From: a virus
Taxonomy: Duplodnaviria > Heunggongvirae > Uroviricota > Caudoviricetes
Virus record (IMG/VR): IMGVR_UViG_3300032286_000505
Span: 1 to 64,000 of that record
Reading direction: 5' to 3' (one strand)
DNA: 64,000 bases
The position numbers and the translations under genes were made by a program. Of the stretch, positions 11,597 through 55,171 are shown piece by piece; within the stretch, counting starts at the first letter, position 1; the number at the start of each line of letters is the position of its first letter. The notes under the pieces were generated by a model. The model had not been told where the DNA came from. It did not search any database and worked only from the letters and a program-made list of their open reading frames with translations.

Positions 11597-11821
11597 ACTC
11601 CCACCACCTCCACCTAAGTGTATAAGGTATATTTAGGTGGGGGTGACCAGGCTATCGATTGGGTCAAGAGTACGGAAATGGACAGTCCGGCAATGTAGAA
11701 GCCGTTAGGATTGGGGATTCCCGGTTGCAGAAGCAAAACAAAGTAAATGCAAATGATGAAGCATTTTTGATGGCCGCCTAAATCGGCTATCGGGGCAGCT
11801 ATGCCTAGCAACAGGAAATAG

Positions 11822-11853
11822 CAGAAAGCACCTTCGGGTGCTTTCTTTATTGT
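11822..11853 (+). terminator. Rho-independent terminator (GAAAGCACC-TTCG-GGTGCTTTC followed by TTTATTGTT)
   Basis: 9-bp GC-containing stem, tetraloop, T-rich tail. Confidence 0.6.
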
Positions 11854-37397: not shown

Positions 37398-37934
37398 GTG
37401 AGCCTAAAAGACCTAACAGCAGAAAAACATAAACTAGCAGAATCAACTCCCTTTATGAAAGCGGTGTTTGCTCAAACTTTGCCGCGTGATATTTGGGTTG
37501 ATTGGACTTATCAGAAATGGTTGTTCTACGGTGCCATCGAAGGTGCCGCAGGTGCTAATCGTTTACTAGAAGACTTGCCAGATTTGCGTAGAGCATTTTA
37601 TTTGGCAATGGACTATGCAGAAATGAACGGCAGTAATCCACTACATGAGTTCCGCCCCGTTGTTGTAGACTACTACAACTACCTGCTATCCATTAGCAAA
37701 GACCCCGAGAAGATTATGGCGCACTTGTACACATGGCACATGGGCGACATGTTCGGTGGGCAAATGATTAAGAAGATTGTTTCAGGACCACATCGTAATT
37801 TAGAATTTGAAGACCCCCGCACACTAATGACCAACATTCGTGCTAAACTAGACGACAGCATGGGCGACGAAGCCAATGTGGCCTTTGACTGGGCAATACG
37901 CATGATGAGAGATTATGACAGTAGTTTGGGATAA
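37398..37934 (+). CDS. heme oxygenase
   Basis: YTWHMGDMFGGQMIKKIV parallels cyanobacterial HO1 YTRYLGDLSGGQILKKIA; N-terminal LKDLTAEKHKLAE helix. Confidence 0.7.
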   Translation: MSLKDLTAEKHKLAESTPFMKAVFAQTLPRDIWVDWTYQKWLFYGAIEGAAGANRLLEDLPDLRRAFYLAMDYAEMNGSNPLHEFRPVVVDYYNYLLSISKDPEKIMAHLYTWHMGDMFGGQMIKKIVSGPHRNLEFEDPRTLMTNIRAKLDDSMGDEANVAFDWAIRMMRDYDSSLG

Positions 37935-38586
37935 GATTAGTAAATTAGCCGCCGATATTACAGAACGATTTAATGCTAATGGTGAACAGACAACTACACC
38001 GTCTGAACATCAATACAATTGGCATAATACCCTGTGGACTAGCAATCGATTTCGCAGGGCACATGTTGAAATTGTAGATTTCCGAGAATCCCACAATATC
38101 TACATATTACACTGTACGGTATTTCCGCACTACAACGATCCGAGTCCTATCTACGGGTTTGATGCAGTATGCGGTCCCAACAAAATAACAGGTGCCTTCC
38201 ACGATTTTAGCCATGCTGGTGACCCCCATAGTTTTATGTATCTGTGGTTCAAAGCCCAAGTACACGGTCTAGAGTGGAACAAGCCCAGAGCGCTTCCTGA
38301 ATGGGCTCAGCAGATCTTTAGTCCGGCCATGGTAGCTGCTGGTAACCTACAGGACGAAGCAGAAATAGATCAATTGTGCAGTACAGCACTGACTACGCTA
38401 GATTTCTATTTAAAGAATGTAGGGTTAGATCAACAAGATACTGCGGATTTTCATATAGCACAGAACCGTTATTGCCATTGGCAAAAGCAGAATCCGCATG
38501 TAGTTAAGAGCATGATTAGCATGGGTGTGCCTGAATCTACTATGAAGAAGTTTGTTAGCGAAGTGTTGTTTCCTGAAGTTAGATAA
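37915..38586 (+). CDS. ferredoxin-dependent bilin reductase (PcyA/PcyX/PebS family)
   Basis: RAHVEIVDFRESHNIYILHCTVFPHYNDPSPIYGFDAVCGPNKITGAFHDFS and C-terminal QNRYCHWQKQ...VLFPEV align with the PcyA core and C-terminus. Confidence 0.7.
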   Translation: MTVVWDKISKLAADITERFNANGEQTTTPSEHQYNWHNTLWTSNRFRRAHVEIVDFRESHNIYILHCTVFPHYNDPSPIYGFDAVCGPNKITGAFHDFSHAGDPHSFMYLWFKAQVHGLEWNKPRALPEWAQQIFSPAMVAAGNLQDEAEIDQLCSTALTTLDFYLKNVGLDQQDTADFHIAQNRYCHWQKQNPHVVKSMISMGVPESTMKKFVSEVLFPEVR

Positions 38587-38596: not shown

Positions 38597-40399
38597 ATGA
38601 GATCACGTGAATTTTTAAAAGAAGCAACCCTTCAAAGCTCGTCCACTTCTAGCTGGCCCACTTATCTAGCAAATCTTATTACTGCAAAAGATATCGGAGT
38701 TGGTCCACAGGGTGAAAAACGTAGCGGACAACAATTAGACGATAAATCTAAAAAAATAGTAAAAGATCTAATAACACTGCTTAAAAACAACATTAATACA
38801 GGAGAACTAACTTCTCGAGAAATAAAAGCATCAATAGAAAATACTGTTGTTACATTAATTCCAGATGAAGTATCTGTTCCAATAAAATTTATTTACAAAA
38901 ATGCAGAAATTAAAGGCGGAAAATCAGAGGCAGGCTCTGAAAAGAAACCTTGGAATGAAGGTGAAGTTACCGAAACAATCCTCGGCGCTGCCTTATACGC
39001 TAGATTTATCAGTAATAAAAATATCTCAGGCGGCGAAGTTTTAAATGCTCTCAAAGAGTTTGTACAGAATCCTACACCAAATGGATTTGAAATTACAGAT
39101 GCTGTGAGAAACAAAACAAGTCCTATTCAAATGAAGGCATTAAATAAACCTGGAAACAATGAAGTTATCAACGAATACATAACTAATAAAAAAGATCTAG
39201 CTCTTAAATTTCCAGAAGGCGTAGCAGCTCTAGATCGTAAAGTAGAAGCCTGTGCTGCCTATGTAAATGAATCATCTAAAGTAAAAAAAGCATTGGAAGA
39301 AGCAGATGCCGTTCCTGGTAATACAATTATTATTAAAACTGACGGTGTAACTGAGCAAAAAGGAACTAAGGCTGACTTAGAAATTAGTGTTGGGAAATAT
39401 AAACAGCTACTAAGTTTAAAAGTAAACGATGTCAAGCAATTTGGTCAAGACAGCGGTTCAAGTGGTGTTATAGTATCTACGTTTTTTAAACGTTTTATTC
39501 CAGATTTAGACATATCAAATCTATACATGAATGGAGATATACCTAAGTCCTGGACTCCAGAAACAGGTGAGGGCTGGCCCAATATGGGTAGCAAGGCATC
39601 GACAAATGCGCTCAAACGTGACGGACTATGGGAATCAGCAGTTGATCAAGTATACAAGTTAACTGGCATGGCCTATCAACAGGCACACGATTTGTTACAA
39701 CGGCAACTGTCAACTCCGGTCGGAGCAGAGCAAGTTATTTCAAATATTTACAACGGCATACTACATCACGCACAAGGCAGTAATGCTGACCAATCTTTGG
39801 TTATATTAAATCCAGATACTAAGACAGCTTGGAAAGAATTAGAATTTGGACCTCCACTACTTCAAGCGTTAAAAAATTATCGCTTGGAAGTCTCGGTTCA
39901 AATAGCACCACCTGGAACTGATAGCAATCACCGACTTAAAGTCTTCGGTAGACCACTGACTCCAATAGCTGGCGCGGCAGCGGCCATTGATATTAGCAGT
40001 CCAGAAAAAGCCAAGAAAGTCAAGAAAGATCTAGATTCTAATAAACCTGTAAGAGAAAAAATGGATCCGGAGATGTTATTCCAATTAAGATCCTATATAC
40101 AAGAATCTGGTAATATGCGTAATCCAGTAGAAATGGGACCATTGCTAAAGAGTCTTACCGAAGTACAGGCAATTAATGCAGCGCCTGAGGTTGCGCCTGC
40201 GGCCGTTCCGGACGAATTAGACAGAATTAAAAATCTAGCAGGTGTTCCTGCAACTCCTCCAAAACCTGGACCAAATACAACTACTATGCAGGGAACTACT
40301 ATGCAGACCCCTACAACAGCTGGTATAACCAATCAAAATCGTACACTGGGTAACAAGATTCCTATGGGATCTGCGCCGTTGCCTACAATGCCACAATAA
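38597..40399 (+). CDS. hypothetical protein (600 aa), Pro/Ala/Thr-rich C-terminus
   Basis: Large ORF; no motif recognised. Confidence 0.4.
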   Translation: MRSREFLKEATLQSSSTSSWPTYLANLITAKDIGVGPQGEKRSGQQLDDKSKKIVKDLITLLKNNINTGELTSREIKASIENTVVTLIPDEVSVPIKFIYKNAEIKGGKSEAGSEKKPWNEGEVTETILGAALYARFISNKNISGGEVLNALKEFVQNPTPNGFEITDAVRNKTSPIQMKALNKPGNNEVINEYITNKKDLALKFPEGVAALDRKVEACAAYVNESSKVKKALEEADAVPGNTIIIKTDGVTEQKGTKADLEISVGKYKQLLSLKVNDVKQFGQDSGSSGVIVSTFFKRFIPDLDISNLYMNGDIPKSWTPETGEGWPNMGSKASTNALKRDGLWESAVDQVYKLTGMAYQQAHDLLQRQLSTPVGAEQVISNIYNGILHHAQGSNADQSLVILNPDTKTAWKELEFGPPLLQALKNYRLEVSVQIAPPGTDSNHRLKVFGRPLTPIAGAAAAIDISSPEKAKKVKKDLDSNKPVREKMDPEMLFQLRSYIQESGNMRNPVEMGPLLKSLTEVQAINAAPEVAPAAVPDELDRIKNLAGVPATPPKPGPNTTTMQGTTMQTPTTAGITNQNRTLGNKIPMGSAPLPTMPQ

Positions 40400-40463
40400 T
40401 TCAGTTTTCTTTTCTAAGACTTAAATAAGTCTACAGAGTTAAATACTCTTATATAGGAAAGAT

Positions 40464-40835
40464 ATGGAAATACTGTTCTTACTGCTATTATTCCAAATCA
40501 AGCACTGGTACGCTGATTTTAAGATTCAAACCTACATGCAGACTGTAAAGAAGGGCGTGTGGTTAGATCCAATTGGCATGAGCCATACATGGGACCACGT
40601 TAAGTTTACTATTGTAGTCCTAGCAATCTTTTGGTTTATTCATCCAATAAGTTTATGGTCGGCACTATTAGTCATATTGCTAGAGGGCCCGTATCACTAT
40701 ATAATTGATTATACCAAAGTTAGATACGGTTGTAAAGATAATACCAAACCGTTATTCTGGAATCAGTTTGGCTTAGACCAATTAGCTCATCAAATATCTT
40801 ATCTTGCCATTGCGTGGTATCTATTAGTTTTTTAA
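40464..40835 (+). CDS. integral membrane protein (4 TM, 123 aa)
   Basis: Hydrophobic helices. Confidence 0.4.
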   Translation: MEILFLLLLFQIKHWYADFKIQTYMQTVKKGVWLDPIGMSHTWDHVKFTIVVLAIFWFIHPISLWSALLVILLEGPYHYIIDYTKVRYGCKDNTKPLFWNQFGLDQLAHQISYLAIAWYLLVF

Positions 40836-40903
40836 TCTAGACTAAAGTACTACGATAATTTGTAGTAATTACTCCTTAAATATTATTAATAAGGGAGCAG
40901 TCT

Positions 40904-41389
40904 ATGAAAAAGATCGTAGTAGCATTAGGGGTATGGCTCGCACTAGCTGTAAATTCCGCAAATGCAGAGCTAGTTCAACAGTTTAAAAATCCAGCTTTTA
41001 GCGGTATTGGATACAGCAGTCATGTATTGACTATTGACAGTATCGAAAAATCACGCAAAGATGCAATTGAAGCTGATAAAAAAGCAACCATTGCTAGAGC
41101 AGAAGCTGAACTGCTAAACACACCTTTGAATAGATTCATGGGCCTATTTCAAAGCCAAGTTTATGCTCAACTTGCAACACAATTAAGCAATAACCTATTC
41201 ACAAATAAATGCGCTAATGCAGACGGCACTGCAATTCCGGGCTGTGTAAATCCAACAACAGGTAACTTTAATCTAGACGGTAATACAGTTACCTGGGCCA
41301 AAGCCAATGACAAAGTTACACTGACAGTTGTAGATGCCAAAGGCACTGTAACTCGAGTTATTGTTCCAATTGCTAGTTTCAGTTTTTAA
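40904..41389 (+). CDS. csgF: curli assembly protein CsgF-like
   Basis: Signal peptide followed by ELVQQFKNPAFSG, matching the CsgF N-terminus TMTFQFRNPNFGG; RBS AAGGGAG. Confidence 0.65.
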   Translation: MKKIVVALGVWLALAVNSANAELVQQFKNPAFSGIGYSSHVLTIDSIEKSRKDAIEADKKATIARAEAELLNTPLNRFMGLFQSQVYAQLATQLSNNLFTNKCANADGTAIPGCVNPTTGNFNLDGNTVTWAKANDKVTLTVVDAKGTVTRVIVPIASFSF

Positions 41390-41399
41390 GGAGTAAACA

Positions 41400-42248
41400 A
41401 TGAAAGCAATTAAATTATCCTTAATCACACTAGCCGCAGTGACTCTAGTAGGTTGCTCAACTGTACGCCCATTTGGCAGTACACAAATCAAAGAAGAAGC
41501 TCGAGTCAGTGAAACTATCAATAAAAGTTTTGTTGATGTTCCAAGTCCAGCAGGCCCAGCAGTCACTGTGGCAGTCTATGGCTTCAAAGACCTAACAGGA
41601 CAGCGTAAACCAAGTTCAACATTGAGCTTGTTTAGTACAGCAGTTACACAAGGTGCTGAAGCATACTTGATGAAAAGTTTACAAGAAGTTGGCAATCGTC
41701 AATGGTTCACAGTAGTTGAACGTGTTGGCCTTGACAACCTATTGAAAGAGCGTCAGATGATCAAACAGACACGTGAGATCTACGAAGGCGCAAATGCCAA
41801 ACCTTTACCTCCACTACAAATGGCGGGCGTTATTTTAGAAGGCGGCATTATTGACTACAACAGTAACACCTTAACAGGCGGAACTGGAGCACGTTGGTTA
41901 GGTATTGGAACACAAACAGCTTACACTCAGGACGTGGTTGTTATTAGTCTGCGTCTAGTAAGCGTACAAACTGGCGAAGTCTTAACTACGGTAACAGTGG
42001 AAAAGAATTTGCTCAGTACCGCCGATGGTGCAACAGCGTTGAAGTTTTTCAACCAGGCAACACAGGCGTTCGAATTTGATACGAGTCAAACATTCAATGA
42101 GCCGGGCAACTATGCCCTACGTTCAGCAATTGAGACAGCGGTTATCGAATTGATTAAAAAAGGTGAGCGTCAAAACCTGTGGAAATTCAAAGAGCAAACA
42201 ACTGAGTTGGTTCAAGACAATACCTCACTTGAAGAAAGCAAAAAATAA
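41400..42248 (+). CDS. csgG: curli secretion channel lipoprotein CsgG
   Basis: Lipobox LVGCS; VAVYGFKDLTGQRKP, FSTAVTQGAEAYLMKSLQ, WFTVVERVGLDNLLKERQ, VILEGGIIDYNSNTLTGGTGARWLGIG, LRLVSVQTGEVL align along the length of E. coli CsgG. Confidence 0.85.
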   Translation: MKAIKLSLITLAAVTLVGCSTVRPFGSTQIKEEARVSETINKSFVDVPSPAGPAVTVAVYGFKDLTGQRKPSSTLSLFSTAVTQGAEAYLMKSLQEVGNRQWFTVVERVGLDNLLKERQMIKQTREIYEGANAKPLPPLQMAGVILEGGIIDYNSNTLTGGTGARWLGIGTQTAYTQDVVVISLRLVSVQTGEVLTTVTVEKNLLSTADGATALKFFNQATQAFEFDTSQTFNEPGNYALRSAIETAVIELIKKGERQNLWKFKEQTTELVQDNTSLEESKK

Positions 42249-42284
42249 AGTAAAACAGGTTGAACAGACCAGGAGCAAACAAAA

Positions 42285-43079
42285 ATGAAAAAAACACTAT
42301 TAACAATTTTATTAGCCGCAACACTACCGGCTTTTGCACAGACAGCAGTATCTGCACCATCAGCACCTATTATTCCATCAATGACTACAGTTAGTCCTAA
42401 TGCAACAGCCGCATTGGCCATTGCTACTACTAACCGTGTCTTCATTGATCAAAGTGGTGCAAACCCTAATGTCAACATGACACAAGATGGTACAGGCAAC
42501 AAGGCAGGTTCAGCTGCTCGACCAGTATACCTACGTGGCATTGACCAAGTTATTGTTACCAGACAAGTTGGTATCAACAATGAAATCAATCTAGAAGTAT
42601 CAAACGATACTACTGGAACAGGTAAAGGTGCAAAGGTCACTATTCAACAATTAGGTGACAGTAACACGGTTGACGCGGCCTGCGGATACGGTTTTGCCAG
42701 TAACGGCACAACGGCACTAACAGGATGTAACAATGCTGATCTAAACTGGAAATTCAATACCGGCAGTGATAGCAATGTATTACAGTTCCGTGGATCGGGA
42801 ACAGATCTAAAGAGTGCAATTGATGTTACAGGTGATACTAACAAGTTCTATGTAGATACTATTGGTAATAAACACAGCCAGACTATCAAAGTAGTAGGTA
42901 ACACTAACGAGTTCAATATTAACCAACAATCGACTGGTGCAGCAGGATCTAGCATTTGGGTTGATGTTAATGGTGATGGCAACAAGTTTGCTATGAGCCA
43001 AACTGGAACTATTGATAACGTTATTAATATCAAAAGTGTAGCCACAAGCGGCACATTTAACATCACTCAGAAGAACTAA
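42285..43079 (+). CDS. secreted curlin-repeat protein (CsgA/CsgB-like)
   Basis: Signal peptide; repeated x-I/V-x-Q-x-G-x-x-N-x-x-x-V units (IDQSGANPNVNM, IQQLGDSNTV, INQQSTG, MSQTGTIDNV). Confidence 0.5.
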   Translation: MKKTLLTILLAATLPAFAQTAVSAPSAPIIPSMTTVSPNATAALAIATTNRVFIDQSGANPNVNMTQDGTGNKAGSAARPVYLRGIDQVIVTRQVGINNEINLEVSNDTTGTGKGAKVTIQQLGDSNTVDAACGYGFASNGTTALTGCNNADLNWKFNTGSDSNVLQFRGSGTDLKSAIDVTGDTNKFYVDTIGNKHSQTIKVVGNTNEFNINQQSTGAAGSSIWVDVNGDGNKFAMSQTGTIDNVINIKSVATSGTFNITQKN

Positions 43080-43088
43080 GGAGCGGCA

Positions 43089-44267
43089 ATGAGAGTTGCC
43101 TCTCTTATCATTGGCTTATTGGTAGCCAGTTCAGCTTGGGCGGAAATTGGTTCCGTTACAGAAGCCTCTGGAACTGCTATCATTAAGCGTGGTAAAGAAA
43201 CTATTCAAGTTTCTAAAGGAACTCTTATTGAAACCAACGACCGAGTTGAGACCAAAAACGGTAAGATTAAAATTGTTTTTAAAGACGATACTAATGTTAC
43301 CGTTACTGAGTCTAGTAGCTTAATCATAGATGACTTTGTTTATGATCCCAAAAGCGGTGCTGGAAAGCTAGGACTTAAAGCAGCCGCAGGTACGATACGC
43401 TATGTATCTGGCAACATTGCTAAAGATCCTAAGAATGTAAAAATCAATACGCCTACAGCAGCCATTGCTGTTCGTGGTACTGATTTTGTTATGGCAGTCA
43501 GTGAAACTGGCGCTAGTATGGTCATGCTGATGCCCACCTGTGAAATAGAACAAAATGTAAACTTAAAAGGTCTTAGCTGTGGCAGTGGTGCTATCGATGT
43601 AGAAACACCAGCAGGCATTGTTAAACTAAATCGCCCTTATCAAGCTACCCTAGTTGAAACACTAAACGGCATGCCCAGTCCTGCTGTAGTTGTTGCTCTT
43701 AATGGCATGGCTATTGGCAATAACTTAATAGTTAGTCCTCCACAAACAACTACCGGTATAAATGTTATTGCTGCTGCCCGTGCTGCCGCAGTAGCTACAG
43801 GTGATGCAAAGAAAGACGATAAAAAAGATAAGCGTGACGATAAAGAAGATAAAGATGACGCCAAAGAAGAACGTCAACATGCTGCCAATAAAGATAACGG
43901 TGGAGCAAATAAGTCACAGAAGCAAGGACGCGGATCTAACGACAACAGTGAAGAAGAGAAAACTAGAACTGCTGCCAATAGCATCGATCCTCCTACAAAT
44001 AAAGAAGTTGCATCTAGTGAATCTACAGCAATAGGTGATATTGAAAATCCCTACGTTAAGAAGTTATGGAAAGACAAAAGCGAAACGCAACAAGTTGGAT
44101 GGATGTATGAAAGTTTAAGTCCAAACAATCGTAACTATGCAAATATCGTTATGCCTTTAGACACTAAAGTTCAGGTTACTGTAACACAAGATATGCAAAC
44201 CAATCAATGGAACTTTGCTCCAGGCAAACCTATAGGACAGATTGTTATCAATCAGAACTTCAGATGA
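43089..44267 (+). CDS. secreted FecR-domain protein with charged low-complexity linker
   Basis: Signal peptide; IIKRGKETIQVSKGTLIETNDRVETKNGKIKIVFKDDTNVTV resembles a FecR/DUF4974-type beta sandwich. Confidence 0.45.
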   Translation: MRVASLIIGLLVASSAWAEIGSVTEASGTAIIKRGKETIQVSKGTLIETNDRVETKNGKIKIVFKDDTNVTVTESSSLIIDDFVYDPKSGAGKLGLKAAAGTIRYVSGNIAKDPKNVKINTPTAAIAVRGTDFVMAVSETGASMVMLMPTCEIEQNVNLKGLSCGSGAIDVETPAGIVKLNRPYQATLVETLNGMPSPAVVVALNGMAIGNNLIVSPPQTTTGINVIAAARAAAVATGDAKKDDKKDKRDDKEDKDDAKEERQHAANKDNGGANKSQKQGRGSNDNSEEEKTRTAANSIDPPTNKEVASSESTAIGDIENPYVKKLWKDKSETQQVGWMYESLSPNNRNYANIVMPLDTKVQVTVTQDMQTNQWNFAPGKPIGQIVINQNFR

Positions 44268-46345
44268 AAAAGATATTTCTAGCCTTAATGTTGTTATGTG
44301 CCAATGCATATGCCGACCTAACTGATATCAAGTTTGGTCAAAGCCAGATCGCTGATAGTCAGTGGAATGTCAACGCTTGTCTTAATACCACTACCTGCCA
44401 AATCTACAGTAAGAATCCAGGTACTGCCTATAAGATTCCTTGGACTAACGGGCAGGTATCTTGGGCCTCAGGAGACTATGTAAAATTCAGCTCTAGCGGT
44501 AATGGTTCCTTTCCTTATACAGCAACACAATATACAAATGCAGGCACAGTAAAATCCACATTGGGCAACGGTAAGATTGTCAATATGGGTCCTGACTATT
44601 TCTTTTTTGTAGGCAGTGACAACAACACAGGACAGTTATTCAGCGGCAGTACTGGTATGAGCGGAACTACTGGTGTTAGTTGGACTGGCACATTAAACCC
44701 TACAGTAGCACAGGCCAACGCTTATGCCAATGCTACATATTCTACAGTTCCTTTAACAGCGGGACAGACTGCTACAACTACGCCAAGTAGTCCTCCGCCG
44801 GCACCTCCTAATTTGGGTTTCGAAACAGGTAATACTAACTCATGGACTATTAGTAATACTACAGGTGCCGCAAACTGGGGCAGTGGTTCTGGCGCGGCAG
44901 TTGTTACAGGACTCCAGCATACACCTGACGGCGGAAAGTCCTGGACCGTAACTCCGTATGGAACTTATATGTTGAGTCTACAGCCAGGTAGTGGAGCACC
45001 TACATTTGATGCTGCAACTACTAGTCTAGGTTTGACTTCAGCACAAAATATAGCAATTAAAAATTTATTAACGCAACAGGCACAGACTAGTGGTGGCGAT
45101 CCAACTCCTACTAATGCCTCTTGGGTTAAGAGGGATATGTCCTTAAAGGCAGGTGTAACGTATTCAATTGCATGGCAGTATCTATCAACTGATTATACAC
45201 CATTCAATGACGGTAGTGTTATTACACTGGTTCACAAAACAGACAGTAGTAAAGTTCCTACACTAAACAACGCGGTTCGAAACTATTCCTTATTAGGATT
45301 TACCAATCCTGGAACAGGTGACTATTCTACCAACAGTTACGGATCAACTGGATGGCAGGTAGCAACATTTACAGTTCCAACTGATGGAGATTATAGTTTA
45401 GGATTTGCAGTTTTTAATCTTGGAGACACTGCTCTAAGTCCTATTTTACTAATTGACGAAATGCAGGGAACTACTATGTTAAACGGATCAGCGTTTAATC
45501 CAGTTCCTCCTAACCCGGGTACTGGCGCTCCAGCAACGGGTGGCGGTACAGTTGAACCTACTTGGCCAACAACTAGCGACATTACAGCAGGACAGACTAC
45601 ACAAAAAAACGCTGCCAAGACTCGTGTTACTAATATCCAATTAGGTAACTATGTTTATATTGATCAAAAGATTGGTAGCAGTAGTAATACAGTAACTATT
45701 GAACAAACTGGCAACTACAACAAGATTAGTGGGTTGGGTGGCGGAACTTACGCGGTGTCAGATGGTGACAGCAATACTATTAACATTAAGCAAGGCGATA
45801 CTTTGGGTAAAAACTTGATTGAGTTTAACATTGTAGGTAATACTAATAATGTCAGTATATGGCAAGCACGTAATCCTACAACAGGTTTACAAGATGGCAA
45901 CGAAAGTGGTGGACACTATCTAGGCCTAAATATAAACGGTAACACAAATAATCTATCATTAAAACAAAGTAACAACGGCGGAACATCAAGTGGACACTTT
46001 GCCTATGTTGATGTTACAGGTAACGGCAACAACGGGACATTAAACCAGCTAGGCAATGGTGAAAAAACATTCTTTGGTATTGTTAATGGCAACACCAATG
46101 TGTTTGATATTACCCAACAAGGTTCAGGCAGTTACTTTGATCTAAGTTTAACAGGCACCGGTCACAATGTCTCTGCTAACCAAAAAGACGCAGGAAGTCA
46201 CAAAGCCACAATCAACTTAACCAACGCTGGTGGTGCTAGCAATGTTACCCTAGTTCAACAAGGTGCTACAGCACAAAACATCAACATTACACAGCAGTGT
46301 GCTACATTATCCGGTTGCTCCGTAAGTGTTACACAAGGTCAATAA
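44264..46345 (+). CDS. large secreted protein with C-terminal curlin-like repeats (693 aa)
   Basis: Start moved to MKKIFLALMLLCANAYA (ATGA overlap with upstream stop); C-terminal third carries 10 or more N-x-x-x-V-x-Q-x-G-x-x-N units. Confidence 0.5.
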   Translation: MKKIFLALMLLCANAYADLTDIKFGQSQIADSQWNVNACLNTTTCQIYSKNPGTAYKIPWTNGQVSWASGDYVKFSSSGNGSFPYTATQYTNAGTVKSTLGNGKIVNMGPDYFFFVGSDNNTGQLFSGSTGMSGTTGVSWTGTLNPTVAQANAYANATYSTVPLTAGQTATTTPSSPPPAPPNLGFETGNTNSWTISNTTGAANWGSGSGAAVVTGLQHTPDGGKSWTVTPYGTYMLSLQPGSGAPTFDAATTSLGLTSAQNIAIKNLLTQQAQTSGGDPTPTNASWVKRDMSLKAGVTYSIAWQYLSTDYTPFNDGSVITLVHKTDSSKVPTLNNAVRNYSLLGFTNPGTGDYSTNSYGSTGWQVATFTVPTDGDYSLGFAVFNLGDTALSPILLIDEMQGTTMLNGSAFNPVPPNPGTGAPATGGGTVEPTWPTTSDITAGQTTQKNAAKTRVTNIQLGNYVYIDQKIGSSSNTVTIEQTGNYNKISGLGGGTYAVSDGDSNTINIKQGDTLGKNLIEFNIVGNTNNVSIWQARNPTTGLQDGNESGGHYLGLNINGNTNNLSLKQSNNGGTSSGHFAYVDVTGNGNNGTLNQLGNGEKTFFGIVNGNTNVFDITQQGSGSYFDLSLTGTGHNVSANQKDAGSHKATINLTNAGGASNVTLVQQGATAQNINITQQCATLSGCSVSVTQGQ

Positions 46346-46781
46346 ATACAGCATAGAAGAACATTATGCACAAATTTATTGTATGAGAGCAAACGAATTT
46401 ATTAGTGAACTAGTTAATCCCGACGTGCAGGATATGCGTTTCCACCATAAGCAAGCAATTGGGGATTTTGTTTATACTGCTACTACAGAAATAGAACCCT
46501 ATCACAAAACTAAAATGTTAGTCATTAGAGCACTTGACGGTAAAGAAGCAATAGGCAAGGCCAAATTTTATATTGATCACGGTGATACATTAACAGCGGC
46601 ATTGACTACAGTTCGACCCGAATACCAAAAGCACGGCATTGCCAGCACCATGTATGCGTATGCTAAAATGTTAGGCAACGACATTGAGCCTAGCAAGAAT
46701 CAACTACCGCCCGGAAAGGCCATGTGGCGCAGTTGGAAAAAATCCGGCGATGCTAAATTCCTACTTCCTGACAAAAAATAA
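46326..46781 (+). CDS. GNAT-family N-acetyltransferase
   Basis: RPEYQKHGIASTMYAYA resembles the GNAT acetyl-CoA-binding motif A. Confidence 0.45.
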   Translation: MLHKVNKYSIEEHYAQIYCMRANEFISELVNPDVQDMRFHHKQAIGDFVYTATTEIEPYHKTKMLVIRALDGKEAIGKAKFYIDHGDTLTAALTTVRPEYQKHGIASTMYAYAKMLGNDIEPSKNQLPPGKAMWRSWKKSGDAKFLLPDKK

Positions 46782-46786
46782 ACTTT

Positions 46787-46830
46787 GAAGATCTTTCCAA
46801 AATCTTCATTTGTGATCATTTTGGATCACC
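46787..46830 (+). terminator. tandem hairpins (TGAAGATC...ATCTTCA; GTGATC...GATCAC) with T-runs
   Basis: Directly after the GNAT gene. Confidence 0.4.
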
Positions 46831-47279
46831 TGTATACTGTATAAACACACAAATACACTATACAGCGAGACATAAGGTTGGCAGGCCGGGCTACAATTCT
46901 GCTGAAAAATCCGTTCTGATGTGTGACGGTAATCATTCTTTTCCTCCGCAAAAGGCTTCAACTCACTACCTCAAGCCTTGACTTGAGATGCCTTAAAAAC
47001 GCCAGTCCCTTGACTGTTCACGTTTGAGTTGTCGTAACAGGTTGCACAATATTTTCCAATACGTCCATGAGAGCAATGACACCGAAGCTCTCTTAAAAAT
47101 CGTAGTAGGTTGGGTAAGGTACAGAGCCCAGAGACGTGGAATACAAATACCTACTGTCCTAGTGTGGCTGAAGCAACTCAGCAAACATCTCATGCGGCAT
47201 CCTTAACAGGGTGTCGTATGGCCTCACAATCTAGCAAAACTTCAAAATTCTTCCTCTGAGGAATTTAATAAATATCTGT
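46831..47279 (+). other. long GC-elevated untranslated leader with hairpins and a 13-bp palindrome TTCCTC-T-GAGGAA at 47262..47274
   Basis: 480 nt without a credible ORF, upstream of the CHASE2-cyclase gene. Confidence 0.4.
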
Positions 47280-49346
47280 ATGTTTAAAAAGCTCTTACTT
47301 AATCCTTGGACTGCATTGTTCACCCTCGCACTAGTTCTACTAGTTAGATTCATTGATCCCTCATTTGTAGAATCAGTTCGACTTAGGTATTTTGATCAAT
47401 TAATTACCAGTCAACCCACAAATACTGCTCCCGTACACACAGTCAATATAGATGAAGCTACCTTAGACAAATATGGGCAATTCCCATTCCCTAGAGGAAC
47501 TTATGCAAACATTATTAAAGACCTTTATGATAGAAATGCTGGACTTGTTGTGTTCAATATCCTTATGCCTGAGCAAGATAGGTTTGGTCAAGATAATCAA
47601 TTGGCCCGAGTGTTAGAGAAATATCCTACTATACTCCCGGAGTTGGGAAGCATATCAGGAAAGAACAAAACATTTGGTTCTGCTGTACAGGTAATTGGTC
47701 AAGATCCTGGCGGTGCACTAGTCGACTATCTAGGCATTATTGCCAACGTCCCTGTTTTAGAAGAACGTGCAGCCGGCGTGGGCATTGTAAATACCTTTCC
47801 TGAGATCGACGGTGTTGTTCGTCGTATGCCGTTGCTTATTATGAGTAACAATACTGTGCATCCTAGTATAGCATTAGAGACGCTACGCATTGCCGCAGGT
47901 GATACAAAGATACAGGTTAAAATAACAGACATGGGCGTAGAAGCTCTACGTGTTCCAAAGTTGAGTAAAATTACTGTAGATTCGTTAAGCCGAGTTTGGA
48001 TTGATTGGGCACAAACTCCTAAAGAACATAGCTTGGCTGATTTGCCAAAAGACTTTAACGGTGAAATTGTTATAGTAGGATTAAGTGCAGCAGGGCTGGT
48101 TCAACCAGTTGCTACTGCCCGTGGCGAGGTGTGGCCGCAATATTTGCAGGCCAGTTTGCTAGGCACAATGCTTAACGGCAAGACTATTCAACGTCCGAGC
48201 TATGCAGATGATTTAGAAATTGTTGCCATCTTACTAGCAGGCGTTGCTTTACTGTTATTAACAAGGTGGACTTATGTTGGACTTGCCGCAGTGGTTGTAT
48301 TGGTTGGTGGTGGTGTCGCTGGCAGCATCTATGCTTACAGCAATTTTTTATGGTTATTCGATACTACTGCCTTTGCAGTTGGCACAACTTTGGTCGCTTT
48401 GCATGCCTATGGCGTCAAGTTTGTAAGTGAGTTCTTACAGAAGTCAGCAATCAAAAAACAGTTTGGAAGTTATGTGAATCCTGTTATTGTGGAGCGCCTA
48501 CAAAAAGATCCTAGTTTTATCAAATTGGGCGGTGAGAAAAAAGACCTTACAGTTATCATGAGTGACATGCGTAACTTTACAGGACTAGGTGAAACCTATG
48601 GTGACGACGTTGTAGCATTTACACAAACCATGAACCGTTACATGACTGCCATTGCGGAGCCTATCCTACGCAACAACGGTTGTTTGATCAAATTCATTGG
48701 TGATGCGTCATTACACGTACACGGTGCTCCTATTCAAGAAGAACAAGATCCTGACCACGTGTTGGCCGCTGTTCGTACTGGTTTAGAAATGTTACACGCC
48801 GTTGAACTGTTTAACATTGAACTTACCAAAGAAGGCAAACCTTTGGTAGGTTGCGGACTAGGTATCAACACAGGTCCTACACTAATTGGTAACATTGGTA
48901 GCAAAGACCGTTTTGGTTATGACGTACTAGGTGACAGTGTAAGTCTTACTGCTCGACTAGAAGGACAGACCAAGAATTACGGTGTGTTGATTATCATCAG
49001 TGAATTTACACAGGCTAGAGTAGGGGACAACTATTTTACAATCGAACTTGATAACATTGCTGTTAAAGGTAAGAGCATTGGAGTTACTATCTACACAGTG
49101 TTCTACAATCCAGATATCACAGTGGCAGCAGATTGGATCATGGCTCGTGATATGCACAATGGTATGTTGACTTATTATCGTCAGCAAAAATGGGATCTTG
49201 CCATTGAACTATGTCAAGAACTTACAGGAGAGTTTGATGGTAAGATGGATGATTACTATACGCTATGGCAAGAACGTATTGCTGAAATGCGCTCTAGAGA
49301 TCTTCCTGCAGATTGGGATGGTACTTACAGGGCTACGTCAAAGTGA
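47280..49346 (+). CDS. CHASE2 sensor domain, TM helices, class III adenylate/guanylate cyclase
   Basis: N-terminal TM then periplasmic CHASE2-like domain; three TM helices; cyclase core KDLTVIMSDMRNFTGL...FIGDASL...LGDSVSLTARLEG. Confidence 0.75.
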   Translation: MFKKLLLNPWTALFTLALVLLVRFIDPSFVESVRLRYFDQLITSQPTNTAPVHTVNIDEATLDKYGQFPFPRGTYANIIKDLYDRNAGLVVFNILMPEQDRFGQDNQLARVLEKYPTILPELGSISGKNKTFGSAVQVIGQDPGGALVDYLGIIANVPVLEERAAGVGIVNTFPEIDGVVRRMPLLIMSNNTVHPSIALETLRIAAGDTKIQVKITDMGVEALRVPKLSKITVDSLSRVWIDWAQTPKEHSLADLPKDFNGEIVIVGLSAAGLVQPVATARGEVWPQYLQASLLGTMLNGKTIQRPSYADDLEIVAILLAGVALLLLTRWTYVGLAAVVVLVGGGVAGSIYAYSNFLWLFDTTAFAVGTTLVALHAYGVKFVSEFLQKSAIKKQFGSYVNPVIVERLQKDPSFIKLGGEKKDLTVIMSDMRNFTGLGETYGDDVVAFTQTMNRYMTAIAEPILRNNGCLIKFIGDASLHVHGAPIQEEQDPDHVLAAVRTGLEMLHAVELFNIELTKEGKPLVGCGLGINTGPTLIGNIGSKDRFGYDVLGDSVSLTARLEGQTKNYGVLIIISEFTQARVGDNYFTIELDNIAVKGKSIGVTIYTVFYNPDITVAADWIMARDMHNGMLTYYRQQKWDLAIELCQELTGEFDGKMDDYYTLWQERIAEMRSRDLPADWDGTYRATSK

Positions 49347-50586: not shown

Positions 50587-51372
50587 ATGAGCCGAAAATT
50601 AACCGTAATTCTAAGAACCTGCGGAAGGGTGTTTGCACAACACGGTACAAGATACTTAGACAAAACCAAGCCAGAAATTATCAATGTCTGTGTTAGCAGT
50701 CTTATAGACAGTATCAATCGGGTAAAAGGTCATCAAATAGAGCTGTTTGTTCTAGACGATGCTAGCCCAGACGAATGTGCCAGTGATTTGATTAAAATTG
50801 TTAGTCAGTGTAAATTTCCTGCAACTTTTGTCCCTGTGCAAAATGGTAGCGGCAACGCATTTACTATGAAGGAGGTCTACAATATTGTAGAAACTCACTG
50901 TACAGATCTTTGGTACCATGTAGAAGATGATTATCTACATTTTCCAACTGCAATACAGGATCTTATAGACAGCGTAGATCAGTTTGAAGCCAACACAGAG
51001 CAAATGGTAGCCATTAATCCACATGATGACATATGGCGCTATAACATGAATCTCTATAAGAGTTTTATCCTATTAGGACCTTATAGGCATTATAGAACAG
51101 TTGAGCATACTACCTATACTTGCCTTGCCAGTAAAGATATCTACAACAAGTATAAAAAGCATTTTCAAGATGTTGTAACACTTACTGAACAGGGCGCTGA
51201 TTGGGTTGAAGACAAAAGTATCAATCTGGTATGGCGTAAGGATGATGTCATGTTGTTCAGTCCAATTCCCAGTCTAGCACTGCACATTATGGATCCTAGC
51301 GGCAAAGATCCTTATATTGATTTTGATGCTTTATGGAACAGTGTTCCAGAATTGTGGAGGCTCGGTGAGTAA
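50587..51372 (+). CDS. putative glycosyltransferase (GT2-like)
   Basis: N-terminal LTVILRTCGR and ELFVLDDASPDE (DxD-like). Confidence 0.4.
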   Translation: MSRKLTVILRTCGRVFAQHGTRYLDKTKPEIINVCVSSLIDSINRVKGHQIELFVLDDASPDECASDLIKIVSQCKFPATFVPVQNGSGNAFTMKEVYNIVETHCTDLWYHVEDDYLHFPTAIQDLIDSVDQFEANTEQMVAINPHDDIWRYNMNLYKSFILLGPYRHYRTVEHTTYTCLASKDIYNKYKKHFQDVVTLTEQGADWVEDKSINLVWRKDDVMLFSPIPSLALHIMDPSGKDPYIDFDALWNSVPELWRLGE

Positions 51373-52114
51373 AAATATCACACTTTTTATAGCAGACAAC
51401 AGAAATCATGCTCTGGCCAAGTTTGCTATTGAAAAGACTCTAGAGAACATTGACTGTAGAGAAATTATTACCTACAGTGATCGTTCCATTATAGATGGTG
51501 CCAAACATGTACCTCTGAGAAAAGAAATCAATCTATATGACTACAGTAGTATTGTGCTTAAACAACTATGGAGCCATGTGGAAACTGATCATGTGCTGAT
51601 CATTCAATATGACGGAATGGCCATAAGGGGAGACCTTTGGGACGATGCCTGGCTACAATATGATTACATCGGTGCAGTATGGCCGTGGCCCATTAAGGGT
51701 AGAAATATGGGCAATGGTGGATTTAGTCTACGCAGTCGCAAACTTATCGATGCCTGTAGAGACAATGCAATACAGTTAGGCGGTGAAAGTGGACAAAACG
51801 AAGACACCGCTATCTGTGTAGAGTTTAGGCCTTACTTAGAAGAAAAATATAGTATTCAATATGCATCCAAAGAAACTGCTACCAAGTTTAGTACGGAAAA
51901 TTACTTTCAAGGAGCTAGCTTTGGATTCCATGGTCTATGGAACGCTGCTAAATTCATGAACAAGAAAGATGTTGAATTCATAATGAATCACATACAGCCC
52001 TACACATGGAAAGATGCTAGTAAAACTCGAGTGTGGATACAGATGCTTATGGAGAGAGGATTTGACGATCTTGTTATGCAGACAATAAAAATACTCGAAA
52101 AGGCAGATCAATGA
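51317..52114 (+). CDS. DUF5672-like protein (glycosylation-associated); start may be GTG 51365
   Basis: GGFSLRSRKLIDAC and WDDAWLQYDYIG blocks shared with 61125..62009. Confidence 0.45.
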   Translation: MILMLYGTVFQNCGGSVSKNITLFIADNRNHALAKFAIEKTLENIDCREIITYSDRSIIDGAKHVPLRKEINLYDYSSIVLKQLWSHVETDHVLIIQYDGMAIRGDLWDDAWLQYDYIGAVWPWPIKGRNMGNGGFSLRSRKLIDACRDNAIQLGGESGQNEDTAICVEFRPYLEEKYSIQYASKETATKFSTENYFQGASFGFHGLWNAAKFMNKKDVEFIMNHIQPYTWKDASKTRVWIQMLMERGFDDLVMQTIKILEKADQ

Positions 52115-52965
52115 AGATATACGATTGTTTTACTTTTAATAACGAACTAGACCTGCTGGAACTTAGGCTAGAAGAAATGTCTAGCAGTGTTGATTATTTT
52201 GTTGTTGTAGAAGCAAACCACACTTTCCAAGGATCTCCCAAATCTCTGCACTTAAAGAACAACTGGGACCGATACAGCAAGTGGCACAATCAAATTATAC
52301 ATGTCGTGGTCGAAGACATGCCTAATGACGGTAATGCTTGGCACAATGAACACCACCAGAGAAACAGTATCATGCGCGGTTTGGTTAGTGCTGCTGATGA
52401 CGATTTTATCATTGTAGGAGACGTAGACGAAATACTGCGAGCAGCTACGGTAGACTCTCTAAGAACAGATCCTAGGGACCTGGTAGGATTTAGAATGCCC
52501 TATTTTAATTTCCGGCTAAACTATATGCTTCTAAAGGATAAAGAAACTTATCACGTTTGGACCGTGGGCAGTCGTAAAAAATATCTAGTTCCTAACCCAG
52601 AAAGTTTTAGGAATAGGCGCTTTGGCTTACAGGGACTCAGTTACGGATTTGACGACGGTCGTACACAAGTCTGCGAACATGCTGGATGGCATTTTACCTA
52701 TCTAGGCAATACAGACTGGGTCCGAGACAAGATACGTAGTTTTGCTCACAGCGAATTGAACAGACAGGATGTTCTGGATCAAATTAATGTGGAAGACATG
52801 ATGAACAAGGGCGTGGGCTTTAACCCACTAAATCCTTTACCTTTTATCAAGGTAAAATTAGATGACTACTTTCCTGCGACATTGATAGCAGACACCATTA
52901 AATACGCAGATTATATCACAACCGGCGGAACTGAATCTGCCAGAGAATACTTACCGAAAGAATAA
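52111..52965 (+). CDS. GT17-like glycosyltransferase (bisecting GlcNAc transferase-like)
   Basis: IYDCFTFNNELDLLELRLEEM...DYFVVVEANHTFQG N-terminal signature; paralogue of 60128..60943. Confidence 0.55.
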   Translation: MKIYDCFTFNNELDLLELRLEEMSSSVDYFVVVEANHTFQGSPKSLHLKNNWDRYSKWHNQIIHVVVEDMPNDGNAWHNEHHQRNSIMRGLVSAADDDFIIVGDVDEILRAATVDSLRTDPRDLVGFRMPYFNFRLNYMLLKDKETYHVWTVGSRKKYLVPNPESFRNRRFGLQGLSYGFDDGRTQVCEHAGWHFTYLGNTDWVRDKIRSFAHSELNRQDVLDQINVEDMMNKGVGFNPLNPLPFIKVKLDDYFPATLIADTIKYADYITTGGTESAREYLPKE

Positions 52966-52967
52966 AA

Positions 52968-53516
52968 ATGGAACACTTTTTTCAAAACATACACGGATGG
53001 TTTAACTTCATCAGCATTTACAATTATGTAATAGAGGACGGAGAAGACGGAGATCACTTTGTCGAAGTAGGCGCTTGGAAAGGACGTAGTGCTGCTTACA
53101 TGGCTGTAAATATTGCCAATAGCGGCAAGAAGATCAAGTTTGATGTAGTAGATACTTGGCAAGGTAGTGAAGAACACAAAGATGACGACAGTGTAAAGAA
53201 TGATAATCTATACCAAGAATTCTTAACCAACATGGAACCTGTCAAAGACTATTATACACCCTTGCGAACGACCAGCTTAGAAGCTGCTGCCCAGTACCCG
53301 GACGACAGTCTTAGCTTTGTATTGTTGGATGCAAGTCATACATACAACGACGTAGCAGCAGATATAGAAGCTTGGTTGCCAAAAGTCAAAAGCGGCGGCA
53401 TCCTTGCAGGAGATGATTATCATCACACATGGCAAGGCGTAGTCGATGCTGTTGACGAACTACTACCTGATGCGGAAATTATCGACAATGTCAGCTGGGC
53501 CTACAGAAAGCCATGA
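52968..53516 (+). CDS. class I SAM-dependent methyltransferase (Methyltransf_24-like)
   Basis: VEVGAWKGRSAAYMA glycine-rich SAM loop; LDASHTY; GGILAGDDY. Confidence 0.55.
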   Translation: MEHFFQNIHGWFNFISIYNYVIEDGEDGDHFVEVGAWKGRSAAYMAVNIANSGKKIKFDVVDTWQGSEEHKDDDSVKNDNLYQEFLTNMEPVKDYYTPLRTTSLEAAAQYPDDSLSFVLLDASHTYNDVAADIEAWLPKVKSGGILAGDDYHHTWQGVVDAVDELLPDAEIIDNVSWAYRKP

Positions 53517-55170: not shown

Positions 55171-55171
55171 T

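Follow-up and report, generated by a model that had tools for sequence, protein, structure and literature searches.

A curli-like secretion module with a chimeric curlin-repeat protein in a jumbo phage genome

Phage-borne curli modules and their carriers

Curli-type (type VIII) secretion modules of marine phages were reported between 2013 and 2022. They were analyzed in the pelagiphages HTVC008M and Melnitz and in uncultured HTVC023P-type podophages (PMC7029224, PMC9004378, PMC9599517), and transcripts of phage curli genes occur in ocean metatranscriptomes (PMC9599517). The module described here, found in a 64,000-nucleotide stretch of viral DNA (the window), has the same parts in the same order as these pelagiphage modules. 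Its gene order, CsgF, CsgG, CsgA/B-like, FecR, second CsgA/B-like and adenylate cyclase, matches the phage T8SS-FecR-cyclase module (Wittmers et al. 2022), and HTVC008M and Melnitz have an orthologue of every core window protein (27–46% identity). The author of the preliminary description was not aware of such a system having been described; however, the same order was already annotated in both phages and analyzed in the three studies above, especially PMC9599517. The module is thus of a known kind, here in a different and much larger phage. Modestly new are the jumbo-phage carrier and a second curlin subunit with swappable N-terminal domains, one of which (D2) is common to autotransporter- and cadherin-type adhesins.

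Known pelagiphage carriers are 140-kb T4-like myophages or podophages, whereas the carrier of the window module is a jumbo phage and not a T4-like pelagiphage. Relatives of the window were located on contigs of 345–383 kb, and its rIIA is nearest to that of PA5oct-type Pseudomonas jumbo phages (~30% identity). The tmRNA of the window phage is of the beta type, that of Melnitz of the alpha type. All phage genes named earlier as flanking the module (RNR, rIIA/rIIB, a tRNA island and a weak HNH) were found in the window, with rIIA (match 9.8e-129) and rIIB (3.8e-80) upstream of the module and the tRNA island downstream.

Gene content of the module

Five adjoining ORFs on the + strand at 40904–46345 encode CsgF, CsgG, the CsgB-like Cur264 (264 aa), a FecR-domain protein and Cur693 (693 aa), which has curlin repeats at its end. 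A Sec signal peptide or lipobox is present in 5/5 of these products. The six ORFs listed in the preliminary description, which include a GNAT-like gene, were confirmed in their coordinates and + orientation. From csgF to GNAT, the successive intergenic distances are 10, 36 and 9 bp, a 4-bp overlap and 37 bp, so the claim of an operon-like layout (co-directional genes packed with gaps of 9–37 bp and one overlap) also stands. Pfam matches to CsgF and CsgG and the synteny among viral loci support the identification as a curli-type secretion module within a phage genome, which we regard as highly probable.

The CsgF homologue (161 aa; 40904–41389, + strand) matched Pfam PF10614 over the whole profile (E 2.4e-11; 44.3 bits, cut-off 25.8). 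Its signal peptide ends in A-N-A and the mature N-terminus is ELVQQFKNPAFSG. With QQFKNPAFSG against FQFRNPNFGG of E. coli, it carries the N-terminal F-x-N-P-x-F-x-G motif, and the CsgF N-terminus was indeed recognizable, as had been proposed. Pairwise BLAST with E. coli CsgF found only QF(K/R)NP, which is not significant alone. Orthologues in Melnitz and HTVC008M are 33–39% identical, and CsgF was present in 78/78 viral loci.

CsgG (282 aa; 41400–42248, + strand), an outer-membrane lipoprotein channel, was the clearest assignment (Pfam PF03783, E 1.1e-50). Full-length matches to E. coli CsgG structures (PDB 3x2r and 4uv3; E 3e-43 to 8e-42, residues 10–266), 40% identity to E. coli CsgG by tblastn and a lipobox, L-V-G-C, read from the sequence bear out the strong call made before. 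In the constriction loop, F56 is retained, while Y51 is replaced by Ser and N55 by Leu. The closest bacterial CsgG sequences are alphaproteobacterial, as reported previously (PMC7029224, PMC9004378, PMC9599517). The noted absence of CsgE and CsgD was upheld, as tblastn of the window with the E. coli proteins gave no match (best E 0.9–1.1). CsgC, CsgD and CsgE are missing from alphaproteobacterial curli loci too (PMC9599517), and therefore these three do not define the wider family.

Gene neighborhoods were counted over 80 IMG/VR viral loci, with denominators that differ by gene. Six core genes (CsgF, CsgG, Cur264, FecR, Cur693 and cyclase) are syntenic across viral loci, and their dN/dS of 0.08–0.13 relative to the close relative L005 indicates purifying selection. 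The module had been ended too early, leaving out a CHASE2/class III cyclase gene (47280–49346) that follows it in 44/47 viral loci. Conversely, of the six genes first listed, five belong to the module but GNAT does not (0/80 related viral loci). The GNAT-like acetyltransferase (46383–46781, alternative start 46326, + strand) lacks a signal peptide and is a borderline match to Pfam Acetyltransf_1 (21.3–21.6 bits, cut-off 20.7). Its gene was present only in the window and in a second locus of the same phage (L003), and is absent from L005, in which a 147-bp spacer separates the conserved genes versus 934 bp in the window. It is a strain-specific insertion outside the module.

The histidine kinase that precedes csgF in the podophage form was not found among the upstream genes, which are a DUF3307 gene and one whose 600-aa product matched nothing in Pfam or NCBIfam. 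The DUF3307 integral membrane protein (40464–40835, + strand; Pfam PF11750, E 6e-8) is 64% identical in L005. Where the viral CsgG is 70% identical or more, its gene is directly 5' of csgF (17/17 loci), as against 1/61 among more distant viral loci. It is a lineage-specific upstream companion and not part of the pan-phage core.

Secreted repeat proteins

Cur264 (42285–43079, + strand) has a signal peptide ending in A-F-A and matched the NCBIfam CsgB model (E 1.4e-6) and, by tblastn, E. coli CsgB (E 3.8e-4). Curlin-type repeats had been assigned to it. The CsgB-model match supports this, but the Pfam Curlin_rpt (PF07012) score of 19.3 bits is under the cut-off of 20.7, and its 3 strict curlin kernels (N-x-h-x-h-x-Q) are not significant by themselves. 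Structure prediction, suggested earlier as a check, gave a two-sheet beta-solenoid with strands ~11 residues apart (AlphaFold, pLDDT 79). Its dN/dS relative to L005 is 0.13.

Cur693 (44264–46345, + strand) is a secreted, chimeric subunit with orthologues in HTVC008M and Melnitz. Its signal peptide is followed by domain D1 (44315–44743), a Pro-rich linker, a beta-sandwich domain D2 (44804–45508) and C-terminal curlin repeats (45575–46342), all on the + strand. Of the 11 curlin kernels counted in the entire protein (mean after whole-protein shuffling, 1.55), 10 lie in the C-terminal 256 residues, and this C-terminal part shows 30–35% identity to the HTVC008M and Melnitz second curlin proteins. 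These data favor the curlin repeats claimed for its C-terminal third. However, searches of Cur693 against Pfam gave nothing over threshold, and its curlin score (16.6 bits, cut-off 20.7) was too low; the HTVC008M and Melnitz orthologues scored above this cut-off (21.8–33.1 bits). The repeats are degenerate, with the full kernel on only one strand per rung. An AlphaFold model of Cur693 was of moderate confidence (pLDDT 68).

With Cur693 as query, Foldseek retrieved adhesin domains of gingipains as well as carbohydrate-binding modules, at probabilities of up to 1.0 and E ~1e-2. These matches were assigned to D2 by aligned length and not by coordinates. D1 and D2 are swapped, added or dropped among variants of the family; HTVC008M has a PA14 domain at their position, and relatives have an F5/8 type C domain there. 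In the proteins that carry it, D2 is mostly N-terminal; an autotransporter beta-domain was found in 8/45 of those scanned, and further D2-bearing proteins have cadherin/Ig repeats or Curlin_rpt. D1 and D2 are 53–81% identical in loci whose other module parts reach only 33–55% identity. The Foldseek matches of D2, the PA14 and F5/8 type C domains of relatives and the presence of D2 on autotransporter- and cadherin-type proteins suggest that Cur693 is an adhesin. It is possible, although we hold this only tentatively, that it is a modular one, with the curlin domain polymerizing into, or anchored to, a phage-built fibre and D1/D2, PA14 or F5/8 type C swapped between phage lineages like tail-fibre tips. 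In that case, infected cells might attach to a selected target, such as a sibling host, a particle or a competitor phage, and the FecR-domain protein and CHASE2-cyclase might report the state of envelope or fibre as cAMP.

Sensor genes, proposed function and known systems

The periplasmic FecR-domain protein (392 aa; 43089–44267, + strand; Pfam PF04773, E 9.5e-10) has a signal peptide ending in A-W-A and a Lys/Asp/Glu-rich linker. The gene at 47280–49346 (+ strand) encodes an inner-membrane sensor with a periplasmic CHASE2 domain (Pfam, E 3.6e-37), transmembrane helices and a class III nucleotidyl cyclase domain (Guanylate_cyc, E 6.2e-15). Proteins at the same positions in Melnitz and HTVC008M are 44–46% (FecR) and 35–41% (cyclase) identical. 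The FecR-domain gene occurs in 69/69 viral loci and the cyclase is the conserved last gene of the module, whereas neither was found near CsgG in bacterial loci (0/75 and 0/69, respectively). The best PDB matches of the cyclase are Cya2 and CyaB. The two metal-binding Asp residues are retained, in MSDMRNFT and IKFIGDA, as are the substrate pair of Lys and Asp (the latter in YD) and the Arg, but the catalytic, transition-state Asn of class III adenylate cyclases is Ser in YDVLGDSVSLTARLE. Because of this replacement, which also occurs in 28/52 viral cyclase homologues, cyclase activity is uncertain, and this counts against the explanation given below.

The most likely role of the module, we infer, is to build curli-like fibres or adhesins on the surface of the infected cell, with a periplasmic sensor. 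During infection, the Sec and Lol machinery of the host would export the module proteins; CsgG would form the outer-membrane channel and CsgF its cap. Cur264 and Cur693 would cross the channel unfolded and then fold or polymerize at the cell surface, Cur264 as nucleator or anchor, Cur693 joining the fibre via its curlin domain and displaying the N-terminal binding domains D1 and D2. The FecR-domain protein and the CHASE2-cyclase, a pairing with a precedent in the Burkholderia operon described below, may be a sensor pair that converts an envelope signal to cAMP. The outcome would be an adhesive, remodelled cell surface leading to aggregation, capture of neighboring hosts or exclusion of competing phages. 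We consider fibre or adhesin display about evenly balanced between right and wrong, and the explanation as a whole, a phage-borne curli-like secretion module that remodels the infected-cell surface, slightly more probable than that.

Several observations count against fibres. Both repeat proteins of the window are under the Pfam curlin cut-off, Cur264 has few strict kernels, and the Cur693 model is of limited confidence. To pass a channel ~1 nm wide, Cur693 has to be kept unfolded in the periplasm despite its two folded domains, with no CsgE-like and apparently no CsgC-like helper. In addition, clumping of Melnitz-infected cells was not seen in cytograms or electron micrographs (Buchholz et al., PMC9004378).

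This lack of clumping would also fit secretion with no amyloid, in which CsgG and CsgF export both repeat proteins as monomeric beta-solenoid adhesins, anchored or released, that do not polymerize. Their degenerate repeats agree with it, and beta-solenoids are mostly scaffolds rather than polymerizing units (PMC10192328). However, the best structural match is a polymerizing curli subunit, and a CsgB-like protein paired with another curlin protein recalls the division of curli into nucleator and subunit. We consider export of monomers rather unlikely.

Less probable still is the proposal of Buchholz et al. 2022 (PMC9004378), made from structure models and gene neighborhood in Melnitz and from the missing aggregation, that CsgG and CsgF are repurposed as a gated channel for lysis timing, in the manner of pinholins or secretins, with the repeat proteins irrelevant. 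In the window, the CsgE gate was not found, the constriction residues Y51 and N55 are altered, and the lysis-inhibition genes rIIA and rIIB are in the same genome, all of which would suit such a channel. However, CsgG resides in the outer membrane and pinholins depolarize the inner membrane, which CsgG cannot do from its location. Moreover, csgA and csgB were assumed to be missing (PMC9004378), whereas the window has both repeat proteins with signal peptides, and their genes are syntenic in 65/74 and 43/55 viral loci and under the purifying selection described above.

The idea that an ungated CsgG-CsgF pore admits haem, siderophores or cofactors to the periplasm, where FecR and the cyclase sense them (PMC7029224, PMC9599517), is improbable to the same degree. 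The missing CsgE, the FecR domain and a haem oxygenase and bilin reductase pair 2–4 kb upstream in 35/68 viral loci speak for import. However, this linkage is absent in Melnitz and HTVC008M, FecR domains are a general sensor fold of the periplasm that is also present in Leptospira surface proteins, and two conserved secreted beta-solenoid proteins and the adhesin-type domains of one of them are left unexplained. Finally, although curli genes are typical of bacteria and JGI names some homologues 'autotransporter adhesin', a chimeric assembly of bacterial and phage DNA, or repeat proteins that are ordinary virion tail-fibre beta-helices, can practically be dismissed: separate assemblies of several samples show the same succession of genes, haem oxygenase to glycosyltransferase, and it is found again in IMG/VR contigs as long as 383 kb, which settles the contiguity check proposed earlier, GC is flat (0.38–0.42 over 37–50 kb), rIIA/rIIB and the tRNA island lie on either side, and every repeat protein carries a Sec signal peptide, a feature missing from virion proteins that assemble in the cytoplasm.

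Compared with the pelagiphage modules, which are likewise without CsgD, CsgE and apparently CsgC, the window module differs in its GC of ~40%, the larger second curlin protein with D1 and D2, the upstream DUF3307 gene, the GNAT insertion and the lack of an upstream histidine kinase. With the csgBAC-csgDEFG system of E. coli and Salmonella, it shares a full-length, ~40% identical CsgG, a CsgF of the same Pfam family, and secreted subunits with N-x-h-x-h-x-Q kernels and a two-sheet beta-solenoid (in the window, a predicted model). Unlike that system, it has no CsgE or CsgD and apparently no CsgC, forms one co-directional block instead of two divergent operons, has a FecR-domain protein and a CHASE2-cyclase embedded, and has degenerate repeats and one subunit with ~420 extra N-terminal residues.

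The sensor genes resemble a biofilm-regulating operon of Burkholderia contaminans (PMC5192318), in which a secreted FecR-domain protein is also encoded beside a membrane sensor with a periplasmic CHASE2 domain. There, however, the output runs through a histidine kinase with its response regulator, and a LysM domain accompanies the FecR domain, whereas the window pair has a class III cyclase output and is embedded in a secretion module. As for Cur693, Van Gerven and colleagues are said to have engineered, in 2014, CsgA fusions in which a curlin-repeat domain carries a passenger that CsgG is meant to export and the fibres to display. The passenger of Cur693 is N-terminal and large (~420 residues) and its export is putative, but in its arrangement this protein looks like a natural version of such engineered display.

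Composition and extent of the module

Six ORFs, all on the + strand, lie between 40904 and 46781; the first four are 10, 36 and 9 bp apart, the fourth and fifth overlap by 4 bp, and 37 bp precede the sixth, in agreement with the preliminary description, which had read them as co-directional genes with very short gaps or overlap. Since a scan of the region 37-50.6 kb yielded fewer promoter-like sites than shuffled sequences (24 versus 33.8) and weak terminators only, it was uninformative on the claim that these genes form an operon. A Pfam profile search supported four of the six ORFs: CsgF (40904-41389, E = 2.4e-11), CsgG (41400-42248, E = 1.1e-50), a FecR-domain protein (43089-44267, E = 9.5e-10) and, weakly, a GNAT protein (from 46326 or 46383 to 46781; 21.3 bits against a cut-off of 20.7). 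The other two encode secreted proteins of 264 aa (Cur264, 42285-43079) and 693 aa (Cur693, 44264-46345). The original CsgG call was borne out: E. coli CsgG from PDB aligned over residues 10-266 (E = 3e-43), an L-V-G-C lipobox is present, and the constriction loop retains F56, with Ser at the position of Y51 and Leu at that of N55. The CsgF call also stands, its resemblance to E. coli CsgF being at the profile level only: pairwise BLAST aligned just QF(K/R)NP, and phmmer with the window protein found no CsgF match in PDB. By inspection, a basic N-terminus, a hydrophobic core and an A-x-A cleavage site could be read in CsgF, Cur264, the FecR-domain protein and Cur693.

To delineate the module, the window proteins were searched against the surroundings of CsgG relatives in 80 IMG/VR and 79 bacterial loci. 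CsgF was detected in 78/78 viral and 6/76 bacterial loci, the low bacterial number probably reflecting divergence from the phage query and not absence. Viral and bacterial counts were 69/69 and 0/75 for the FecR-domain protein, 65/74 and 0/77 for the 264-aa-like protein, and 43/55 and 1/71 for the curlin C-terminal domain. A CHASE2-cyclase, encoded at 47280-49346, was found in 44/47 viral and 0/69 bacterial loci, so the module end previously placed at 46781 was too short. The GNAT protein, earlier counted as a member, was absent from all 80 viral and all 79 bacterial loci. It sits in an insertion relative to L005, the locus of a close relative: similarity ends at the stop codon of the Cur693 gene and returns within the cyclase gene, with 934 bp in the window versus 147 bp in L005. 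The 498 bp between GNAT and cyclase (46782-47279) contain no convincing ORF, and an Rfam search of this spacer gave no match. With the GNAT gene and the 498-bp stretch in place of the 147-bp spacer, the site looks like a hot spot for insertions. In the comparison of the window with L005, dN/dS was 0.08-0.13 for CsgF, CsgG, Cur264, Cur693, FecR and cyclase, values that are approximate because dS (0.7-1.4) is near saturation; judged from sequence, these six core genes are kept by selection. A single "bacterial" CsgG locus had viral-type neighbors: JADHSL010000125.1 (6.9 kb, binned as Pirellulales), where CsgG is accompanied by haem oxygenase, bilin reductase, CsgF and a 264-aa-like protein. This contig is probably of phage origin and was placed in a bacterial genome by faulty binning.

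The CHASE2-cyclase has strong Pfam matches to both of its domains (CHASE2, E = 3.6e-37; cyclase, E = 6.2e-15), and Cya2 and CyaB are closest to its cyclase domain. Both metal-binding Asp residues, the Lys/Asp adenine pair and the Arg are retained, and Ser replaces the transition-state Asn. Viral homologs fall into two classes. The first, to which the window domain belongs (48480-49346), accounts for 28/52, has the motif YD(V/I)LGDxVS..AR(L/I)E and shows the same replacement of the catalytic Asn by Ser; the rest keep Asn, and about 23/52 form a second class with YTCLGDxVNLA(S/A)RLE (Asn and Thr). In a biofilm-regulating operon of Burkholderia, a periplasmic FecR-domain protein is encoded beside a CHASE2 sensor (PMC5192318). 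By analogy only, this supports the idea that the FecR-domain protein and the cyclase work together.

A haem oxygenase (37398-37934, Pfam E = 7e-16) and a ferredoxin-dependent bilin reductase (37915-38586, E = 3e-20) are encoded 2-4 kb upstream of csgF. The pair was present upstream of the module in 35/68 viral loci, even where CsgG was only ~50% identical. Its linkage to the module is physically real, and it may reflect shared ancestry alone. The hemO-pcyX cassettes of large freshwater phages have been published, in papers that do not mention curli. A 600-aa protein (38597-40399), encoded after the bilin reductase and before DUF3307, had no Pfam or NCBIfam match and is barely conserved even in close relatives (23-42% identity, four loci).

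Cur264 and Cur693

The preliminary description had assigned curlin-type repeats to both secreted proteins. Pfam Curlin_rpt scored them at 19.3 and 16.6 bits, both just under the cut-off of 20.7. For Cur693, the evidence that it is a curlin is good. Its residues 437-691 are 30-35% identical (E = 1e-20 to 2e-24) to the second curlin protein of two cultured phages, Methylophilales phage Melnitz and Pelagibacter phage HTVC008M, and the latter proteins clear the cut-off (21.8 and 33.1 bits). The curlin core has been defined as the kernel N-x-h-x-h-x-Q (PMC10192328). Cur693 contains 11 such kernels, 10 of them within the last 256 residues and spaced 22-34 residues apart, whereas whole-protein shuffles (n = 2000) averaged 1.55 and never exceeded 9; the same pattern detected 10 kernels in E. 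coli CsgA and 6 in CsgB. For Cur264, the evidence is moderate. It has 3 strict kernels only, but the NCBIfam CsgB model matches it (E = 1.4e-6), and it was retrieved when E. coli CsgB was searched against all six frames of the window (E = 3.8e-4). Its AlphaFold model (pLDDT 79) has strands of 7-8 residues, ~11 residues apart. A sequence profile of the Cur264 family retrieved nothing from PDB sequences, even at E = 10, and hhalign of the family with E. coli CsgA aligned a single 22-residue repeat (probability 15%).

The Cur693 model (pLDDT 68) shows a first domain, D1 (~20-150), a Pro-rich linker, a second domain, D2 (~185-410), a second linker, one helix and a solenoid (460-693). Foldseek matched this model to beta-sandwich carbohydrate-binding modules (CBM16, CBM61 and CBM4) and gingipain adhesin domains, with probabilities up to 1.0 and E values of only ~1e-2. 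These matches were assigned to D2 by aligned length (~220-235 columns), as the output did not include query coordinates. On this model, Cur693 joins putative binding domains to curlin repeats. The curlin end is constant in its family and the N-terminal part is variable: in addition to the D1-D2-curlin arrangement of the window, we observed D2-curlin, D1-curlin, D1 followed by an F5/8 type C domain and curlin, and D1 with an extra domain ahead of D2 and curlin. In HTVC008M, a PA14 domain of the second curlin protein takes the place of D1/D2. D1 and D2 are 53-81% identical in loci where CsgG is ~50%, FecR ~35% and the curlin part ~33% identical, which suggests that they may have been exchanged between lineages.

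When only D2 was searched against the full library, 288 clusters of proteins of 236-2776 aa were returned, in which D2 is mostly N-terminal. When 45 of these clusters were scanned against Pfam, an autotransporter beta-domain was found in 8, cadherin/Ig repeats in 4-5, fn3 in 3 and Curlin_rpt in 3 (up to 7e-11); other partners were F5/8 type C, C-type lectin and OmpA. Given this N-terminal position and the autotransporter, cadherin and Curlin_rpt partners, D2 looks like an uncharacterised adhesin "head" carried by several surface-display scaffolds.

The carrier phage

An artefact is very unlikely. A host-phage chimera was rejected on the basis of independent assemblies and recurrence in viral loci: the exact CsgG protein occurs on contigs from several samples, at least three of them with the same neighbors. 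One 20.6-kb contig with this exact protein runs from haem oxygenase to glycosyltransferase, and GC content is flat over the module region. A reading of the repeat proteins as virion tail fibers was likewise rejected because of the signal peptides (by inspection) and synteny.

Among the flanking phage genes named initially, RNR, rIIA and the tRNA island were found, and HNH_3 (62536-63150) was a weak match. The window encodes rIIA (PHROG E = 9.8e-129), rIIB (3.8e-80) and a PAAR and baseplate-hub-like protein, as well as RNR, NAMPT, a NUDIX/NMNAT protein, ClpX, Dam methylase, 23 tRNAs and a two-piece tmRNA. The best matches of rIIA are in PA5oct-type Pseudomonas jumbo phages (~30% identity), and module-bearing relatives are on contigs of 345,448 bp and of 250-383 kb. 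The permuted tmRNA (11502-11849, tag ANDEAFLMAA) best fits the betaproteobacterial Rfam model (121 bits), whereas Melnitz has a permuted tmRNA of the alpha type with a glutamine riboswitch behind it; the window yielded no riboswitch. From the rIIA type, the size of the relatives and the beta-type tmRNA, the carrier is thus a jumbo phage lineage apart from the published carriers.

Several other genes were observed. Where the GC content of the window is lowest (0.326), the gene for an EcoRI-family restriction endonuclease (30368-31027, Pfam E = 9.4e-16) runs into the beginning of that for a D12 N6-adenine methyltransferase (31011-32105, E = 2e-16); the pair may be a type II restriction-modification cassette carried by the phage. 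The NMNAT and NUDIX protein (14719-15738) and NAMPT (16742-18139) constitute an NAD salvage pair, which occurs in other large phages. The ClpX-like ATPase (28776-30005) has a zinc finger. Two clusters of glycosyltransferases (GT17, GT47-like, DUF5672), methyltransferases and an epimerase (51317-56696 and 60059-62009) flank and interleave with the tRNA island (57730-63484).

Proposed role and relation to published phage curli genes

The ORFs, Pfam matches and viral neighbors confirm a curli-type gene set in a phage-like genome, and its identity as a secretion module of this type is very likely. Genes, export signals (by inspection), synteny and selection are seen directly. We give roughly even chances to a role in the display of fibers and adhesins, coupled to a sensor pair, that makes the infected cell adhesive or masked. 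CsgG and CsgF would form an outer-membrane channel through which Cur264 and Cur693 would be exported unfolded; the CsgB-like Cur264 would nucleate or anchor, and Cur693 would join via its curlin domain with D1 and D2 displayed. The FecR-domain protein and the CHASE2-cyclase would turn an envelope signal into cAMP, and the infected cell could become adhesive or masked. Less probably, the secreted proteins might act as monomeric adhesins, or the channel might serve for import. A third and likewise less probable reading, that CsgG and CsgF are a pore only and time lysis, is weakened by the completeness of the module, since neither secreted subunit is missing and purifying selection acts on both.

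The gene set itself has been described before, contrary to what was first supposed, and it opens no new category; of the preliminary description, the curli-type secretion module in a phage stands, and its undescribed status, GNAT membership and end coordinate do not. Zaragoza-Solas et al. (2020) described it from pelagimyophages, with "sibling capture" as its suggested role (PMC7029224). Buchholz et al. (2022), who held that csgA and csgB were missing, favored a pore that times lysis (PMC9004378). CsgA/B-like genes, FecR and cyclase were recognized in both myo- and podophages by Wittmers et al. (2022), who also detected phage curli genes at each of the 65 GOV2 stations as well as in metatranscriptomes (PMC9599517). 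None of these three papers mentions PA14, lectin or adhesin domains, and a literature search for jumbo phages and curli returned nothing relevant. The adhesin-type domains of Cur693 are testable for binding and could address the purpose of phage curli, a question since 2020.

Blastn with 40000-47500 found no match among GenBank phages, and relatives are visible at the protein level only: tblastn with the window CsgG detected Melnitz (45% identity) and HTVC008M (42%). Both are annotated with the same order, i.e., CsgF, CsgG, a curlin-associated protein, a FecR-domain or hypothetical protein, a second curlin or hypothetical protein and adenylate cyclase, and each core window protein has an ortholog in them. 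The curli/FecR/cyclase module extends beyond phages of SAR11 and OM43 to jumbo phages with beta-type tmRNA, and explanations based on the SAR11 lifestyle are therefore too narrow. Compared with the published module, what is added here is this jumbo-phage context and the reading of the second subunit as a putative modular adhesin.
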